Shown: piece by piece, positions 54,634 to 60,211 of the stretch
Numbering within the stretch: position 1 is the first letter of the stretch
Layout: each line of letters begins with the position of its first letter
DNA from: Marine Group I thaumarchaeote
GTDB lineage: Archaea; Thermoproteota; Nitrososphaeria; Nitrososphaerales; Nitrosopumilaceae
NCBI GenBank assembly: GCA_044358425.1
Contig: CP054849.1
Span: 416,073 to 476,283, forward strand
Reading direction: 5' to 3'
Length of the DNA: 60,211 nucleotides
Notes under the pieces: model-generated
Database searches by the model: none
Told to the model about the DNA's origin: nothing
What the model saw: the letters and a program-made list of their open reading frames with translations, nothing else
Program-made: the position numbers and the translations under genes

Positions 54634-55647
54634 ATGTATAAGATTTCATTAATTACTGGTGATGGAATAGGTCCTGAACTATCTGATTCTGCAATTTCAG
54701 TATTGAACACAATTCAGGAAAAATATGGAATTGAATTTGAAATTTCTAAATTAGTTGCTGGAGATAAAGCTCTTGAACAAACAGGAAAAGCACTACCTGA
54801 TGATGTAGTTGAAACAATAAAAAATTCTGATGTGTGTCTTAAAGCCCCAGTAGGTGAAAGTGCAGCTGATGTTATTGTTGTTTTAAGAAGAATGCTTGAT
54901 CTTTATGCAAATATTCGACCTTCAAAATCATACCCTCACATGCCTGCATTACGTGATGATATTGATATGGTGATAGTTCGAGAAAATACTGAAGATCTTT
55001 ACACTGGCAAAGAATTTAGTCTAGGGGACTCTGCAGTTGCTTTGAGAATTATTTCTGAAGCTGCGTCAAAAAGAATTGCAAAATATGCATTTGAAACTGC
55101 AAAACAACGTAATTCTATGAAAAAAGTGACATGTGTTCATAAATCTAATGTCATGCGTGTCACTGATGGATTATTTGCAAAGGCATGTATTGAAGTTTCA
55201 AAAGATTATCCTGAAATTAAATTTGAAGAAATGTATGTTGATGCATGTGCAATGAATTTAATTCGTCAACCTGAAAAATTTGATGTTGTAGTAACTACTA
55301 ATCTCTTTGGTGATATTTTGTCTGATGAATCTTCTCAAGTAGTTGGTGGTTTAGGTATGGCACCAGCAGCAAATCTTGGTGATGCTTTTGCATTGTTTGA
55401 ACCTGTTCATGGTGCAGCATTTGATATTGCTGGACAAAATATTGCAAACCCTTCATCATTTTTACTTTCAATTAAAATGATGCTTGATTGGCTTGGTGCA
55501 AAACACAATGATCCAAAGTGTTTTGAAATGGCAAAAAAACTAGAATCTACTATTTTTGATTTAGTAAAAACTGGAATTAAAACAAAAGATATTGGTGGTG
55601 ATAAGACAACTACTGAATTTACAAAACAAATTACTGATAATCTATAA
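54634..55647 (+). CDS. leuB: 3-isopropylmalate dehydrogenase
   Basis: GDGIGPE, YANIRP, RENTEDLY, NLFGDILSD, EPVHGAAFDIAG; operon context. Confidence 0.88.
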   Translation: MYKISLITGDGIGPELSDSAISVLNTIQEKYGIEFEISKLVAGDKALEQTGKALPDDVVETIKNSDVCLKAPVGESAADVIVVLRRMLDLYANIRPSKSYPHMPALRDDIDMVIVRENTEDLYTGKEFSLGDSAVALRIISEAASKRIAKYAFETAKQRNSMKKVTCVHKSNVMRVTDGLFAKACIEVSKDYPEIKFEEMYVDACAMNLIRQPEKFDVVVTTNLFGDILSDESSQVVGGLGMAPAANLGDAFALFEPVHGAAFDIAGQNIANPSSFLLSIKMMLDWLGAKHNDPKCFEMAKKLESTIFDLVKTGIKTKDIGGDKTTTEFTKQITDNL

Positions 55648-55688
55648 ATTTACCAAATTTTATTAATTGCAAATTTTAGTCATTAAAC

Positions 55689-55820
55689 ATGGTAGTTTGC
55701 TGTATTTGTAAAATTGCACCTGGAACTTTAAAGATCAAAGATGGTAATCCAAAGTATAAGGGAAAACCTGTTTGCAAAGAATGTGAAGGTTACCGAAAAC
55801 TTTTGAAAGAAACCAAATAA
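55689..55820 (+). CDS. 43-aa zinc-finger microprotein (not in the ORF track)
   Basis: MVVCCICKIAPGTLKIKDGNPKYKGKPVCKECEGYRKLLKETK; CxxC..CxxC. Confidence 0.7.
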   Translation: MVVCCICKIAPGTLKIKDGNPKYKGKPVCKECEGYRKLLKETK

Positions 55821-55884
55821 TCTGATTTTTTGGACTTTATTAGGCACAATAATGCTTATCTAAACGGACTTGTGATGTTCTATA

Positions 55885-56640
55885 ATGGGATTCTTAGATA
55901 GATTTAGCCATACATTTGACAAACAAGGCTATGATCTTGATGGATATGATAGAGATGGATTTTCTAAAAGTGGATACAACAAAAAAGGATATGACAAAAA
56001 TGGATTTGATAGAAATGGGTATGACAAAAAAGGATATGATAAACGAGGATATGACCGAAAAGGATTTGATAAAAAAGGATATGACAAAAATGGTTTCAAA
56101 GAAGGATATGATGAAGATGGATTTGATTTTAAGGGTTTCAACAAAGATGGATACAACAAAAAAGGATATAACAAAAAAGGATACAACAAAGATGGATATG
56201 ATAATCGAGGTTTCTCGATAGATGGGATACACATTGACACAAAAAACCCTTTTGATACAAATGGTTACAACAAAAAAGGATATGACAAAAATGGTTTCAA
56301 CAAAGATGGTTACAACAAAAATGGTTTCAACAAAGATGGTTACAACAAAAATGGTTTCAACAAAGATGGCTATGACTTAGATGGTTACAACAAAAATGGT
56401 TACAGTATAGATGGTTACGACAAAGATGGATATGATTCAAATGGATTTGATGCAAATGGATATGGTGAAACAGGTTACAACAAAGATGGATATGATTCAA
56501 ATGGATTTGATGAAGATGGATATGATTCAAATGGATTTGATGAAGATGGATATGATCATCTGGGATATGACAAAGATGGTTACAACCAAGAAGGATATAA
56601 CAAATATAATAAAAACAAAAACGAAATGGAAACTGATTAA
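55885..56640 (+). CDS. G[YF][DN]xx pentapeptide-repeat protein (about 44 units)
   Basis: Nearly the whole 251 aa is GYDKN/GFNKD-type units, with one GIHIDTKNPFD insertion. Confidence 0.85.
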   Translation: MGFLDRFSHTFDKQGYDLDGYDRDGFSKSGYNKKGYDKNGFDRNGYDKKGYDKRGYDRKGFDKKGYDKNGFKEGYDEDGFDFKGFNKDGYNKKGYNKKGYNKDGYDNRGFSIDGIHIDTKNPFDTNGYNKKGYDKNGFNKDGYNKNGFNKDGYNKNGFNKDGYDLDGYNKNGYSIDGYDKDGYDSNGFDANGYGETGYNKDGYDSNGFDEDGYDSNGFDEDGYDHLGYDKDGYNQEGYNKYNKNKNEMETD

Positions 56641-56732
56641 AAGATTTTGTGTTTGAATGTACTGAACAAACTTAACCATGAACTATGTTTTCTGTTTGAG
56701 TCATTTACGTCATTAATAATCTCAATTTTTAG

Positions 56733-56751
56733 TTATTAAGCATCTTAATAA
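56733..56751. promoter_or_regulatory. 8-3-8 palindrome upstream of the metal-binding protein gene (candidate metalloregulator box)
   Basis: TTATTAAG-CAT-CTTAATAA; related TTATTAA half-sites nearer the start codon. Confidence 0.3.
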
Positions 56752-56833
56752 TTTTTAATAATTAATTGGTTTTAGTATATATTCTATTATTAACATTTTA
56801 CACATTTATTAATAACATTTTGAGAATTTAGGC

Positions 56834-58132
56834 ATGAAAGGTTCTCAAATTGGAATTATTGGTGGAGGAATTGTAGCTGTTGTGATTATTGCAGCATTGT
56901 TTGTATCTATGGGAACTCAAAATAATGCTACTCCGTTACCTGCTGAAAATGATGTCGTTATTCAATCTGAAGATAAATTGCTAGTTTATACAACATTTTA
57001 TCCATTGTACCAATTTACTCAAGGTGTTGCAGGTGATGCAGCTGATGTCCGAATTTTAATTCCAGCTAATGGAGATCCTCATGCATCCGAATTGGGACCA
57101 AAAACTATAGCTGCATTAACAAAAGCAGATATGGTGATTTTCAATGGTGTAGACTTTGAACCATACATTGATGAAATTATGTCTGCCTCTGATTTTGAAC
57201 ATATTGTATTTGTTGATTCATCAGAAGGCATTGAACTTATGGAAGGTGAATCTCATGATCATAGTTCCCATGGAAGTCATGGTGACGATAAACACGATGA
57301 CCATTCAAAAGAAGATGGACACGATGAACATGCTGAAGACTTTTACAAAGAGATTGAACATGTTATAGAAGAATTTGAAGCAGGTGAAATAACTCAATCA
57401 CAATCTATTGAAGAAATTGAGGAAATACTAAGTGAACACAAAGGAGACGGACATGGACATGAAGGTGAAATTGAAAATATTGAACATTTAATTTACGAAA
57501 TTGAAGATGGACACATTGACGGTGCAGAAGGATTAGAAGAAATCCATCATTTAGTTTCTGGTGAAGATGCACATGATGACCATGGGGGAGAAGGCATCGA
57601 CCATACTTATGACCCACACATTTGGCTTGATCCTATATTAGCAAAAGCTCAGGTAATGACGATTGCAGACCACTTACAAGAATCTGATCCTGTACATGCA
57701 GAAATCTACCATGATAATGCTATTTCATATGCTAACCAATTAGATCAACTGGATCAAGAAATCCGTAGTGATGTATCCTCTTGCGCAAAAGACACGTTTG
57801 TACCATTCCACAATGCATTTTCGTATTTTGCAGAAAGATATGATCTCAACACCTTGGCAGTAATACAGGAGTTTAGCCCTGAAACTCCTGTAACTGCAAA
57901 GGATATTGAAAAACTAATTCACTTTGCTGAAGATAATGACATAAAGTATTTCTTCACTGAAGAAAACAGAAATCCAAAACTAGCTGAAAGATTAGCCGCT
58001 GAATTGGGAGGAGATATCTTGTTGTTTAGTCCATTAGAATCTCTTTCTGAACGTGATGATCCAAGTACAACATACTTTGAAAAAATGAGACAAAATGTTG
58101 ATAACTTGCAAATTGCATTAGAGTGTAATTGA
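56834..58132 (+). CDS. Cluster A-I metal ABC transporter substrate-binding protein (ZnuA/AdcA-like) with a long His/acidic insert
   Basis: N-terminal TM helix, TTFYPLY, DPHA, DPHIWLDP, FHNAFSYF, PLE ligands; His-rich loop. Confidence 0.9.
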   Translation: MKGSQIGIIGGGIVAVVIIAALFVSMGTQNNATPLPAENDVVIQSEDKLLVYTTFYPLYQFTQGVAGDAADVRILIPANGDPHASELGPKTIAALTKADMVIFNGVDFEPYIDEIMSASDFEHIVFVDSSEGIELMEGESHDHSSHGSHGDDKHDDHSKEDGHDEHAEDFYKEIEHVIEEFEAGEITQSQSIEEIEEILSEHKGDGHGHEGEIENIEHLIYEIEDGHIDGAEGLEEIHHLVSGEDAHDDHGGEGIDHTYDPHIWLDPILAKAQVMTIADHLQESDPVHAEIYHDNAISYANQLDQLDQEIRSDVSSCAKDTFVPFHNAFSYFAERYDLNTLAVIQEFSPETPVTAKDIEKLIHFAEDNDIKYFFTEENRNPKLAERLAAELGGDILLFSPLESLSERDDPSTTYFEKMRQNVDNLQIALECN

Positions 58133-58162
58133 CAACATTTGTTCAAAATTTTAAAACATTGA

Positions 58163-58417
58163 TCAGGTAGATTTTTCTTTCTGAGGTTTATTTTGTTTTG
58201 CCCATTCTTCGTACATTTTCATTAATTCATCAACGTCTTTTCCCTCTTCAGAATATGTGACAATTACTCCAAATGTCCCTTTTTTATCGTGACCCCGTGC
58301 AAAATATCCCCAAAATGAGTCAGGTAATTTCTGAAAACTACTTGAATCATGTGAGACTCCTATCAAATTATTGCCAATTACTTCGATGACTTTTTTTGCA
58401 TCTTCTTTTTCTATCAT
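58163..58417 (-). CDS. Hypothetical protein
   Basis: 84-aa ORF. Confidence 0.65.
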   Translation of the reverse strand: MIEKEDAKKVIEVIGNNLIGVSHDSSSFQKLPDSFWGYFARGHDKKGTFGVIVTYSEEGKDVDELMKMYEEWAKQNKPQKEKST

Positions 58418-58526
58418 GATTTATGATTAACTTGTTACAATAAAAAGCTGAATATCTAGGCCTAAATTTTAGTAAATTCTTACTTTTACAAAAAACTTAT
58501 TGCTACCTTTGGCAATTTAGATCAAC

Positions 58527-58628
58527 TTGGATTGTCTTCAATGTGATGGAAAAGGAAAGTTCATGAATGAATTTGGCTTGATGGAAAAATGTACTTTCTG
58601 TAAAAACCCTGATTTGAGTTTTGGATAA
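58527..58628 (+). CDS. 33-aa zinc-finger microprotein with a DnaJ-like CxxCxGxG motif (not in the ORF track)
   Basis: TTG start; MDCLQCDGKGKFMNEFGLMEKCTFCKNPDLSFG. Confidence 0.6.
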   Translation: MDCLQCDGKGKFMNEFGLMEKCTFCKNPDLSFG

Positions 58629-58808
58629 TTTTAAAGACCATTTCAAAACTCTAATTTTTTTACAACAAGAAAGAACTGGAAAACATTGGACATAAATGAA
58701 TCCTAACATGAATTGTTTTCCTTACTCATCACTCTACTACGCAGACATGATGGTTTCTTGTTACCATTAGTACGTCAAAATAATATTTAAAATTGATCTT
58801 TTTTTAAA

Positions 58809-58946
58809 TTATTTTTTACTAACATGACCACATTTTTTACATGCGTATCTGACGTCTCCCTCATGTAATTCATTTTTACGAATAAGAACTGTAACTGGTT
58901 CATGACATTGTTTGCACACGCCATTGGGAAAATTACTATCATCCAT
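58809..58946 (-). CDS. 45-aa zinc-ribbon microprotein (not in the ORF track)
   Basis: MDDSNFPNGVCKQCHEPVTVLIRKNELHEGDVRYACKKCGHVSKK. Confidence 0.7.
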   Translation of the reverse strand: MDDSNFPNGVCKQCHEPVTVLIRKNELHEGDVRYACKKCGHVSKK

Positions 58947-59013
58947 AGTTATTTTTGAAATTTACTGAATATAACTAATACATTTTTGAATTTTTTACAT
59001 TTGTAAAACAAGA

Positions 59014-59316
59014 TTAAGACTTTGCAATATCGTAATCTTCTTTACCGTTACCAAATTTCTGTGTGATAATTTTAACTCTGTATTTCTTACCTTTTTGAAT
59101 ATCTTGGCACAATGTTGTGGGGGTTCCGTTATCATAAAATTTTGCAACTATCATCTTTCTTGACGTGTAGAATTTTTTTACTCCGTCAAATTCTTCTTCA
59201 GTCTCAAGATCTATCTCTAAAATTATTTCTTTTCCTACCTTGCGCTCATTTTTTTGTACATTAACGATGGTGAATACTCCTTTATCATCTAATTTTGAGA
59301 GTGATGCTTCAGCCAT
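59014..59316 (-). CDS. Beta-rich hypothetical protein (possible OB-like fold)
   Basis: 100-aa ORF with alternating hydrophobic strands; the fold guess is weak. Confidence 0.65.
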   Translation of the reverse strand: MAEASLSKLDDKGVFTIVNVQKNERKVGKEIILEIDLETEEEFDGVKKFYTSRKMIVAKFYDNGTPTTLCQDIQKGKKYRVKIITQKFGNGKEDYDIAKS

Positions 59317-59394
59317 TTCAATAATTGATGATTTTTTTAGTGATAAACCTCTTTCTGTTGCCTAATACTGAGTATTTCTTTTAAAAATAAAATA

Positions 59395-59493
59395 TTATGG
59401 GATTAACATCACTGCTGTACCCACAATTACTAGAAATCCTACAAAAAGAACCGAACGCTCTTTTTGGTCTCGTAGAAGTTTCTTTTCAAGCAT
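59395..59493 (-). CDS. Candidate 32-aa single-TM microprotein
   Basis: MLEKKLLRDQKERSVLFVGFLVIVGTAVMLIP. Confidence 0.5.
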   Translation of the reverse strand: MLEKKLLRDQKERSVLFVGFLVIVGTAVMLIP

Positions 59494-59622
59494 ACCTTTT
59501 ATTTTTTAATTAAGATTTTAAACAATGTATTTTATTTTAGAAAATTTATGATATGTACATTCAAATACTAATTTTTGATAGAACCGAATCACTTTTTTTA
59601 GTGGATGGTTTATGAATATTGT

Positions 59623-59715
59623 ATGGCCTTCACTCCTTGTCCTTCATGTCATCAACTAAGATTTGATAAAAAGGCAAATCGTTGTAATGATTGTGGTTAC
59701 CAAATAGGTAATTAG
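59623..59715 (+). CDS. 30-aa zinc-ribbon microprotein (not in the ORF track)
   Basis: MAFTPCPSCHQLRFDKKANRCNDCGYQIGN; stop 2 nt before the next ATG. Confidence 0.7.
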   Translation: MAFTPCPSCHQLRFDKKANRCNDCGYQIGN

Positions 59716-59717
59716 AA

Positions 59718-59912
59718 ATGAATATCAAAATGTGTAATCATATTGACGTATCTGGGGTAAGAATAGAAGTATCTCAATCTGTTTTTGCTTTATGCACTGT
59801 AAATGGAAAACAATTTGTTACTTATTCATGTAAAAATTGTTTTGATGAAATAAAGGAATTAGAGCATCAAATTATTTCTAAGGAAGAATTTGAAAAATAT
59901 TTGAATCAATAA
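59718..59912 (+). CDS. Small Cys/His metal-binding hypothetical protein
   Basis: CNH..C..CKNC in 64 aa. Confidence 0.6.
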   Translation: MNIKMCNHIDVSGVRIEVSQSVFALCTVNGKQFVTYSCKNCFDEIKELEHQIISKEEFEKYLNQ

Positions 59913-59958
59913 TTGTCTATATAGTGTGATTTTTTAATAGTATTTTTAGTAGATTATC

Positions 59959-60189
59959 ATGGGCCTATTGGGAAAAAGTAAAGAAAAATGTGATGCATGC
60001 AACAAACCATTTGAAGATCACGATGAACTTGTAGATCATCAAAAAAGAATTCATCCTCCAACTAAACCTTGTACCAAATGTTCTGGATTAATGGCCTGGG
60101 AAAGACAACATACTCAAGCATATGGAAATCTAATCTATGTTTGTAGAGAATGTGACTTTATTGGTGAAATGTGGCGATACTACCCGTAA
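59959..60189 (+). CDS. C2H2 zinc finger plus zinc ribbon protein
   Basis: CDAC..F....L..HQKRIH, then CTKC..CREC. Confidence 0.8.
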   Translation: MGLLGKSKEKCDACNKPFEDHDELVDHQKRIHPPTKPCTKCSGLMAWERQHTQAYGNLIYVCRECDFIGEMWRYYP

Positions 60190-60211
60190 CTGATTTTCGA
60201 CATTGTGCTAG

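Follow-up and report, generated by a model that had tools for sequence, protein, structure and literature searches.

Stand-alone zinc-finger micro-proteins built on one C(P)XCG domain have been described in the haloarchaeon Haloferax volcanii, where, according to the portions of the published accounts consulted here, they form many unrelated families of mostly unknown function (PMC6562870, PMC11241148, PMC10716476). The title of a 2024 Haloferax paper states that several predicted zinc-finger micro-proteins do not bind zinc. A locus with proteins of this general kind occupies positions 55689 to 60189 of a 60,211-nucleotide (nt) stretch of contig CP054849.1 (assembly GCA_044358425.1), here called the window, from a Marine Group I thaumarchaeote of the family Nitrosopumilaceae. 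A first-pass annotation of the window had noticed there six very short open reading frames (ORFs) with paired cysteine motifs, which we name zf1 to zf6, around a gene for a histidine-rich ZnuA-like protein regarded as an orphan; it had proposed either a zinc-responsive module or simply a hotspot where microgenes accumulate.

We consider it probable that the locus is a flexible island of small genes whose microgenes evolve independently, and that ZnuA, together with the adjacent gene of a GYD-repeat protein, is recent cargo and not part of a zinc-sensing unit. The host genome appears to be Nitrosopumilus-like, and its 4.5-kb island would consist of the six zf microgenes, three other small protein genes and one structured RNA gene. 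Of these genes, zf1 is core throughout the clade, whereas zf2 to zf6 would have come, gone or changed place individually. ZnuA and the GYD gene are, in this reconstruction, a recent insertion between zf1 and a small convergent gene, p84, in a single shallow lineage.

Few cells in the ocean are as abundant as marine ammonia-oxidising archaea, whose genomes are small and streamlined; tiny Cys-rich proteins are a sizeable share of these genomes and are often missed by annotation pipelines. Set against the Haloferax micro-proteins, as far as the consulted portions of those accounts reach, the proteins of the window are alike in being stand-alone archaeal proteins of less than about 70 amino acids (aa) built on two CxxC-type motifs, with CxxCG in zf3 and zf4 and CPxC in zf4. 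They differ in that no sequence relationship links the two groups, that only some zf motifs follow the strict C(P)XCG form, that zf6 has 76 aa and two sites, and that they come from a thaumarchaeon in which, by a looser criterion, 1.15 Mb contain about 62 such ORFs. Two conserved CxxC pairs are present in zf1 to zf4 and in zf6, zf5 has CxH...CxxC, and the strict CPxCG/CxxCG form is only partial (CKKCG in zf3; CPSC and CNDCG in zf4). The first five proteins are at most 70 aa long (43, 33, 45, 30 and 64 aa), and zf6 lies just outside this range. Archaeal zinc-finger microproteins in a variable island are a kind already known from haloarchaea, to the extent that those sources describe them; a literature search combining Nitrosopumilus, zinc finger and small proteins found nothing relevant.

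The second system to which the locus can be compared is the cluster A-I importer of the ZnuABC/AztABC type. The ZnuA-family protein of the window shares with it a PF01297 domain with a long His/Asp/Glu loop, and a PF00950 permease and an ATPase are encoded in the same genome. Unlike in these importers, the binding-protein gene of the window is unlinked from the other components, at a distance of 785 kb, and the regulator beside the permease is NikR-like and not Zur.

Every protein was searched in six frames (E<=0.01) against a genus-level set of 61 genomes, one of which is that of the window (G000), and a family-level sample comprised 151 genomes of 27 genera. Synteny was mapped by tblastn of reference proteins on 198 fetched loci, and the DNA of the locus was compared with that of 40 relatives. 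The ratios of nonsynonymous to synonymous substitution (dN/dS) are medians of Nei-Gojobori pairwise values, pairs with dS<=0.05 or saturated differences being excluded. ORF listing and direct reading covered positions 55600-60211.

Conservation of the six microgenes

The six ORFs are all present where the first-pass annotation had placed them, with the refinement that zf3 lies on the minus strand, and the 32-aa hydrophobic peptide that it had reported among them (tm32) is found as well; the coordinates are collected in Table 1. The tBLASTn check of cysteine conservation and dN/dS which it had recommended was favourable for each of them: conserved orthologues exist for all six, and the ratios of 0.07-0.28 indicate purifying selection. 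Since same-genus relatives keep the metal ligands, with ratios in this range, zf1 to zf6 are real genes, with conserved frames and conserved ligands. Their conservation supports the earlier view of them as archaeal zinc-finger-type microproteins, with predicted zinc binding. The cysteine motifs as first quoted were correct for all proteins but one, the 64-aa zf5, where C26 is not conserved.

The most widespread of the six is zf1, which was found in 57 of 61 genus genomes and in all 46 of the high-quality ones, with the frame always open and identities of 70-100%. It is single copy, save for one genome with a second fragment at a contig end, and at the family level its profile detects single copies in 50 of 151 genomes and in 9 of 27 genera. 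The ligands C4, C7, C29 and C32 are kept in 30 distinct proteins, while C5 is variable in database relatives; dN/dS is 0.067 and the isoelectric point 9.4. The AlphaFold2 model of zf1 (predicted local distance difference test, pLDDT, 87.7) has two zinc knuckles and a C-terminal helix. A Foldseek search of this model against the PDB gave nothing below E 1, and its weak top rows are treble-clef proteins (GATA, ZZ, nuclear receptor) with TMq of 0.5-0.6. Protein-database homologues, from Nitrosopumilus-like records, have either no name or the label "hypothetical protein".

The zf2 gene is present in 41 of 61 genomes, and its 27 distinct proteins all retain C3, C6, G8, G10, C22 and C25 (dN/dS 0.26). 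Its TTG start codon (58527-58529) is kept in 26 of 30 distinct coding sequences, and a stop codon lies two codons upstream in the window. The protein resembles the DnaJ Cys-rich domain (PF00684) in having one CxxCxGxG repeat and a second CxxC, but it has one and a half repeats in place of four, lacks a J domain and scores 15.9 bits against a cut-off of 32.7, so that it is not a member of that family. Matches to zf3 were obtained in 10 of 61 genomes, eight of them strong, one partial (G041) and one weak; C11, C14, H15, C36 and C39 are invariant in eight proteins and dN/dS is 0.16. For zf4, found in 22 of 61 genomes, the four Cys are retained in 19 of 20 distinct proteins (dN/dS 0.28), and the start was set at 59623 and not at a possible longer start at 59605 because the orthologues begin at MAFT. 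Sequence searches of the PDB with zf2 and zf4 found nothing below E 0.1.

The zf5 gene was matched in 13 of 61 genomes, eight strongly; the other five matches, at E 0.002-0.008, contain in-frame stops and were treated as noise. Its conserved ligands, from nine proteins, are C6, H8, C39, C42 and H51, with dN/dS of 0.16. A fold for zf5 was sought with AlphaFold2 from nine sequences, and the model was discarded as unusable (pLDDT 51).

Matches to zf6 occur in 28 of 61 genomes: nine are full-length at E<=6e-38 and the remainder are weak and confined to the C2H2 part. Four finger ligands (C11, C14, H27, H32) and four ribbon ligands (C38, C41, C62, C65) are invariant in 10 proteins, and dN/dS is 0.14. 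Residues 11-32 fit the classical C2H2 pattern (PF00096), C-x2-C-x3-F-x5-L-x2-H-x4-H, exactly, with F18 and L24 in the expected places, and a phmmer search against the PDB matches the fingers of PRDM9 (E 3.6e-7) and ZNF568 (E 9e-7). The differences from the classical case are that zf6 has a single finger followed by a C4 ribbon, that it is archaeal, and that its Pfam score is 18.7 bits against a gathering cut-off of 25.2.

None of the small proteins of the island reaches the gathering score of any Pfam family, and zf3 and zf4 have sub-threshold Pfam matches only. The proteins zf1 to zf6 have nothing in common beyond CxxC words of 5-6 residues; judged by sequence, they are six unrelated families, of which zf1 is core and the other five are accessory, in 8 to 41 of 61 genomes. 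The microproteins most likely act singly, as zinc-stabilised binding modules. Nucleic-acid binding would be likeliest for zf6, through its classical C2H2 finger, and for zf1, whose shape is predicted to be a basic finger plus helix; zf2, zf3 and zf4 may be minimal knuckles or ribbons. The locus offers six clean, selection-supported microgenes, among them a core gene (zf1), a gene with a TTG start (zf2) and a gene whose protein joins a C2H2 finger of eukaryotic style to a ribbon (zf6).

It is highly improbable that any of the micro-ORFs arose merely by chance from AT-rich spacer DNA, even though they are very short and zf2 has no ATG. Outside long ORFs, 62 of 1632 small ORFs (25-90 aa) carry CxxC-x6-40-CxxC, which is about one per 19 kb, and shuffling of residues within the ORFs yields 5.4 +/- 2.2 such ORFs per genome. 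About 15% of the genome sequence is masked, so these counts, from the unmasked 1.15 Mb, are lower bounds. The earlier remark that paired CxxC motifs are unlikely by chance is therefore supported, although about five motif ORFs per genome are still expected by chance. Each zf gene, however, has orthologues of conserved length and ligands with dN/dS of at most 0.28; the TTG start of zf2 is conserved, and a 24-aa ORF at 58696-58770 (see below) fails, by contrast, the same test.

Contigs assembled from RNA libraries of three studies, 95-100% identical to the window, cover every gene of the island; such contigs indicate presence in the libraries only and neither strand, level nor proof of transcription. 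Bins left uncovered in single runs are not proof of silence, and contig depths are unfit for ranking genes.

The slot beside zf1 and the ZnuA gene

The island is bordered by the core leuA-leuB genes on one side and by the next larger genes on the other; its right edge was read from the relative G010, in which zf6 is the last island gene before larger ones. In the DNA search G010 (90% identity) was the sole genome collinear over the whole 4.6 kb, and collinearity over all six zf genes is limited to G010 and G050. In most other same-genus genomes the same search joins the zf1 segment directly to the p84 segment. Among 30 zf1 loci, 24 have p84 as the next gene, in convergent orientation, and four (G000, G010, G050, G060) have the GYD gene and ZnuA between zf1 and p84; as for the remaining loci, that of G022 (56% complete) has no p84 at this place and the other is cut off by the end of its contig. 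In the family-level search, other genera included, 9 of 10 loci likewise preserve the pair. The zf1-p84 adjacency is ancestral, and therefore the segment of about 2.3 kb with the GYD gene and ZnuA is an insertion. The two convergent genes nearly abut (relatives' loci L031-L060 and L230-L239), and in some genomes they overlap by a few nt.

The close relatives G041 and G049, whose zf1 is 100% and 91% identical, have the order leuB-zf1-p84-zf2-zf3-p100-zf6 without ZnuA, and this version of the cluster, which lacks the GYD gene too, spans 1.6-2.6 kb. The zf3 gene is frameshifted in G041, and in G060 it is absent between the RNA gene and p100. In G016 and G022 zf6 and zf3 are neighbours, yet in convergent and not divergent orientation, and most carriers of zf4 and zf5 have these genes on other contigs. 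The spacer between leuB and zf1 ranges from 44 to about 1476 nt. The comparative data thus bear out the idea of a hotspot where microgenes accumulate; the synteny between the micro-ORFs and the ZnuA-like gene that the alternative idea calls for was seen in G000, G010, G050 and G060 only.

The contents of the slot between zf1 and p84 vary. In G050 it also holds, between ZnuA and p84, a gene (L171:207-1268) for a TPR protein of 353 aa whose C-terminus carries a HNHEHEHNHEHEHNHEH tract (HNHEHEH... tail); this gene and a 78-aa ORF travel with ZnuA, and neither is in the window. A gap of equal size in G060 suggests that the TPR gene and the 78-aa ORF are there too. In G135 the slot contains the GYD gene and a plastocyanin-like gene, and no ZnuA match was found in two loci covering all but about 450 nt. 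The locus is a good example of a cargo slot which collects metal-related genes, namely ZnuA, a His-rich TPR protein or a cupredoxin according to the strain.

ZnuA matches PF01297 at E 1.1e-73, with 248 bits against a cut-off of 29. Of its 27 His residues, 20 lie in a 128-aa loop together with 43 Asp/Glu, and a His-rich loop is typical of Zn-type binding proteins. Among NCBIfam models AztC fits best, with 182 bits where the cut-off is 350, and MntC (Mn-type) models also match, as the best non-Zn ones; no NCBIfam equivalog cut-off is reached. Because the NCBIfam match is far below the cut-off, metal specificity is suggested by the His-rich loop only. A metatranscriptome contig (run X3) joins position 57339 to 57595 with six other letters between; it is a strain variant of ZnuA lacking 255 nt (about 85 residues) of this loop.

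The absence of an adjoining permease or ATPase gene, observed at first pass, is confirmed, but it does not make the protein an orphan. ZnuA itself is the single PF01297 gene of the genome, which also has exactly one gene of a PF00950 (ABC-3) permease, 785 kb away. The latter, at 1.26 Mb of G000, adjoins an ABC ATPase gene and a divergent gene of a NikR-family regulator, and no binding-protein gene is present there. With a sole PF01297 protein on one side and a ZnuB/ZnuC locus without binding protein on the other, ZnuA is best regarded as the relocated subunit of a split system; it would be the extracellular metal-binding subunit of the distant ZnuC/ZnuB importer. At that distant locus (L168, G000:C1:1257999-1261760) an 88-aa ORF, with no NCBIfam match, occupies the position which ZnuA has in relatives and overlaps the start of ZnuC.

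The canonical arrangement can be seen in the relatives. ZnuA-family genes are present in 56 of 61 genus genomes and, of 30 loci, 19 have ZnuA followed by ZnuC(-ZnuB), usually with NikR upstream. Three others (G045, G062, G065), encoding His-rich proteins of 65-69% identity by tblastn, have ZnuA across from NikR-ZnuC; the rest are the four copies in the leuB island, three genes that stand alone within +/-1.5 kb, and one whose contig is too short for a decision. Between canonical loci and the genome of the window, the ZnuC, ZnuB and NikR proteins share 80-87% identity. Among nine close ZnuA orthologues (>=69% identity), five are located elsewhere than in the island, three of them beside NikR-ZnuC; ZnuA lies away from the island in G009, G045, G062, G065 and G069.

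Upstream of ZnuA, the inverted repeat TTATTAA-N5-TTAATAA occurs in only three places of the unmasked genome and is kept upstream of the His-rich ZnuA orthologues examined. Nearer to the start codon, the palindromic 12-mer ATTTATTAATAA is found twice in the unmasked genome, in the ZnuA promoter and in the spacer between NikR and ZnuC. Its core, TATTAATA, lies at -27 to -29 in nine of nine His-rich ZnuA orthologues and is present in 13 of 19 upstream regions examined. The element may be a TATA box, an operator or both. The weight we give it comes from its conserved position in orthologues and not from the match of the 12-mer itself; on this basis ZnuA is probably co-regulated with the ZnuC/ZnuB locus, through the common promoter palindrome and the NikR-family regulator. 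With at most one mismatch, ATTTATTAATAA occurs once in 55600-60211, at ZnuA, and near no zf gene; over the whole window there are five such matches against 4.8 expected.

These data bear directly on the zinc-responsive module, in which the microproteins and the ZnuA-like protein beside them would jointly serve zinc buffering, sensing or regulation. We judge it very unlikely. All six proteins have putative Zn sites, ZnuA is physically close to them in four genomes, and the segment inserted in G050 encodes a second His-rich protein; but the adjacency is restricted to one shallow clade, the majority of close ZnuA orthologues being elsewhere, the zf cluster persists without ZnuA in G041 and G049, the zf genes are scattered in other carriers, and the palindrome of the ZnuA promoter is at no zf gene. 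Moreover, binding at structural Zn sites such as these is so tight that a role in buffering is not obvious. As recent cargo with its partners elsewhere, ZnuA makes the locus a poor basis for a model of a zinc regulon.

Several observations nevertheless weigh against a plain island with incidental cargo. The locus has five strict-motif ORFs in 4.5 kb, the maximum of the unmasked genome, and uniform placement reaches at least five in only 8 of 2000 trials. Permutation of labels among the small intergenic ORFs, on the other hand, reaches five in 318 of 2000 trials, and most of the apparent enrichment therefore reflects the small-gene island itself; even so, the locus is still the densest strict-motif spot. 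Moreover zf1, zf2, zf3 and zf6 remain together in the nearest relatives even without ZnuA, and some of these four may be functionally linked, though shared ancestry accounts for their staying together equally well. The slot between zf1 and p84 draws in metal-related genes, because the cargo of G050, and probably of G060, includes a second His-rich protein. As for the promoter, an AT-only 12-mer would by our estimate be common to two AT-rich spacers by chance about once in four comparisons.

Elsewhere in G000, concentrations of three CxxC..CxxC micro-ORFs per 4.5 kb are found at about 304.5-312.3 kb and at 679-684 kb.

A candidate structured RNA between zf2 and zf3

The interval from about 58653 to 58799 matches many relatives at 72-88% identity, and no listed ORF accounts for this conservation. 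The sequence is located just after leuB in several genomes and elsewhere in others. Upstream of the RNA, on the minus strand, the TATA-like octamer TTAAATAT is invariant in 27 of 27 aligned copies, in differing genomic contexts, and is a putative promoter element; in most copies the sequence ends with a T-run. When 26 copies are aligned, they fold into three helices, and an independent MAFFT alignment gives 95.5% pairing with nine covarying pairs. A covariance model recovered 43 full-length copies from the fetched loci, in which 94.8% of cells pair and 16 of 28 pairs are compensatory, in an alignment which is fitted to the model and thus biased in favour of the structure. As controls, sliding the partners by 1-3 columns reduces pairing to 34-57%, and none of 500 shuffles reaches the observed values.

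Other readings of the interval were considered and rejected. The plus strand gives 81.0% pairing against 94.8% for the minus strand, with 169 G-U cells. The 24-aa ORF at 58696-58770 has a dN/dS of 0.35 on five close sequences, its frame is disrupted by a 1-nt indel although the nucleotides stay conserved, and the helices covary; it is probably no gene and better read as the antisense of the RNA gene. The C/D-box and H/ACA classes were set aside by eye, the box motifs not being conserved and the internal loop being very asymmetric. An Rfam search with cmscan (E<=1, both strands) returned only a chance match elsewhere, and ARAGORN nothing. No description of this RNA was found in searches of the literature on Nitrosopumilus small or non-coding RNAs, including the consulted part of PMC5069720.

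Taken together, these results make us fairly confident that the element is a real and new family of non-coding RNA (ncRNA), a concrete new target, without Rfam counterpart, for RNA biology in Nitrosopumilaceae. It is present in 46 of 61 genus genomes (35 of 46 high-quality ones) at 1-4 copies and, under stricter filters, in 15 of 151 family genomes and 5 of 27 genera. Its neighbours vary between clades, and no transposase is among them.

The RNA could in principle be what the island is organised around, either as part of a small ribonucleoprotein with the adjacent zinc-finger microproteins or as a landing site for cassettes, in the manner of a tRNA gene; the microgenes would then pile up beside it for that reason. 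We regard this as unlikely. Somewhat more credit, though still little, is due to smaller associations inside the island, with zf1 and p84 as one pair of partners, zf2 with p100 and/or the ncRNA as another, and the rest as bystanders. The zf1-p84 adjacency described above, in genus loci and in other genera, hints that the two may be linked in function, and p100 lies within 1.5 kb of zf2 in 10 of 30 zf2 loci, including some outside the close clade (G008, G001, G017, G065); zf2, the RNA and p100 form an unbroken series in G000, G010, G050, G041, G060 and G135. Yet 20 of the 30 zf2 loci are without p100, the RNA is in unrelated contexts in most genomes, and the adjacency of core genes may be plain inheritance.

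The multiple copies of the adjacent RNA gene at varying loci, together with the patchy presence and shifting positions of zf2 to zf6, could also be expected if the island were a remnant or the cargo of a mobile element such as a casposon, a provirus or an integrative element. This explanation is quite unlikely: a repeat search of 55500-60211 revealed neither terminal inverted repeats nor target-site duplications flanking the island or the inserted segment, the region contains no tRNA gene and no ORF of an integrase, Cas1 or polymerase, and the GC content is like that of the surroundings. In addition, 10 small proteins (ZnuA not among them) gave no PHROG match at E<=0.001, and one a weak match at E 0.005. 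The flexible small-gene island, with microgenes that come and go singly, remains the probable explanation.

Other genes and coordinates of the island

Table 1. Features of the small-gene island in window coordinates
Feature	Position	Strand	Description
zf1	55689..55820	+	43 aa, basic, CxxC-x21-CxxC, single-copy core gene
GYD-repeat protein	55885..56640	+	251 aa, nearly all G(Y/F)(D/N)K(x) pentapeptides, 15-nt period; in inserted segment
Inverted repeat TTATTAA-N5-TTAATAA	56733..56751		upstream of ZnuA
ATTTATTAATAA	56804..56815	+	palindromic motif about 30 nt before the ZnuA ATG
ZnuA-family protein	56834..58132	+	cluster A-I, N-terminal membrane anchor, 128-aa His/Asp/Glu-rich loop; PF01297
p84	58163..58417	-	84 aa, conserved, convergent ancestral neighbour of zf1
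zf2	58527..58628	+	33 aa, CxxCxGxG...CxxC, TTG start, accessory
Candidate structured ncRNA	58659..58768	-	about 110 nt, three helices around a junction; G000:474731-474840 in model R1
TATA-like octamer TTAAATAT	58783..58790	-	upstream of the RNA
zf3	58809..58946	-	45 aa, CxxCH...CxxCG, zinc-ribbon-like, accessory
p100	59014..59316	-	100 aa, conserved
tm32	59395..59493	-	32 aa, hydrophobic stretch at C-terminus
zf4	59623..59715	+	30 aa, CPxC...CxxCG zinc ribbon, accessory
zf5	59718..59912	+	64 aa, conserved CxH...CxxC...H
zf6	59959..60189	+	76 aa, one classical C2H2 finger and C4 ribbon

The GYD-repeat protein consists of about 45 tandem pentapeptides, is acidic and very hydrophilic, and is reflected in the DNA by 15-nt repeat families. 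It belongs to no Pfam or NCBIfam family, and in the Atlas it matches hypothetical Nitrososphaerota clusters only; orthologues of 62-86% identity are at varied other loci within the genus. A weak paralogous DNA match to its gene lies at about 600.8-601.3 kb of G000.

Among the three other small proteins, p84 (dN/dS 0.07) has no match in Pfam or NCBIfam. For p100, with dN/dS of 0.08, NCBIfam gives nothing and the Atlas gives hypothetical clusters and a weak lead to a Phi29 SSB, at 0.89. The tm32 peptide has a grand average of hydropathy (GRAVY) of 0.79 and a dN/dS of 0.08, from three sequences only; it is 97% identical in G010 and G050 and has partial matches in G016, G022 and G135.

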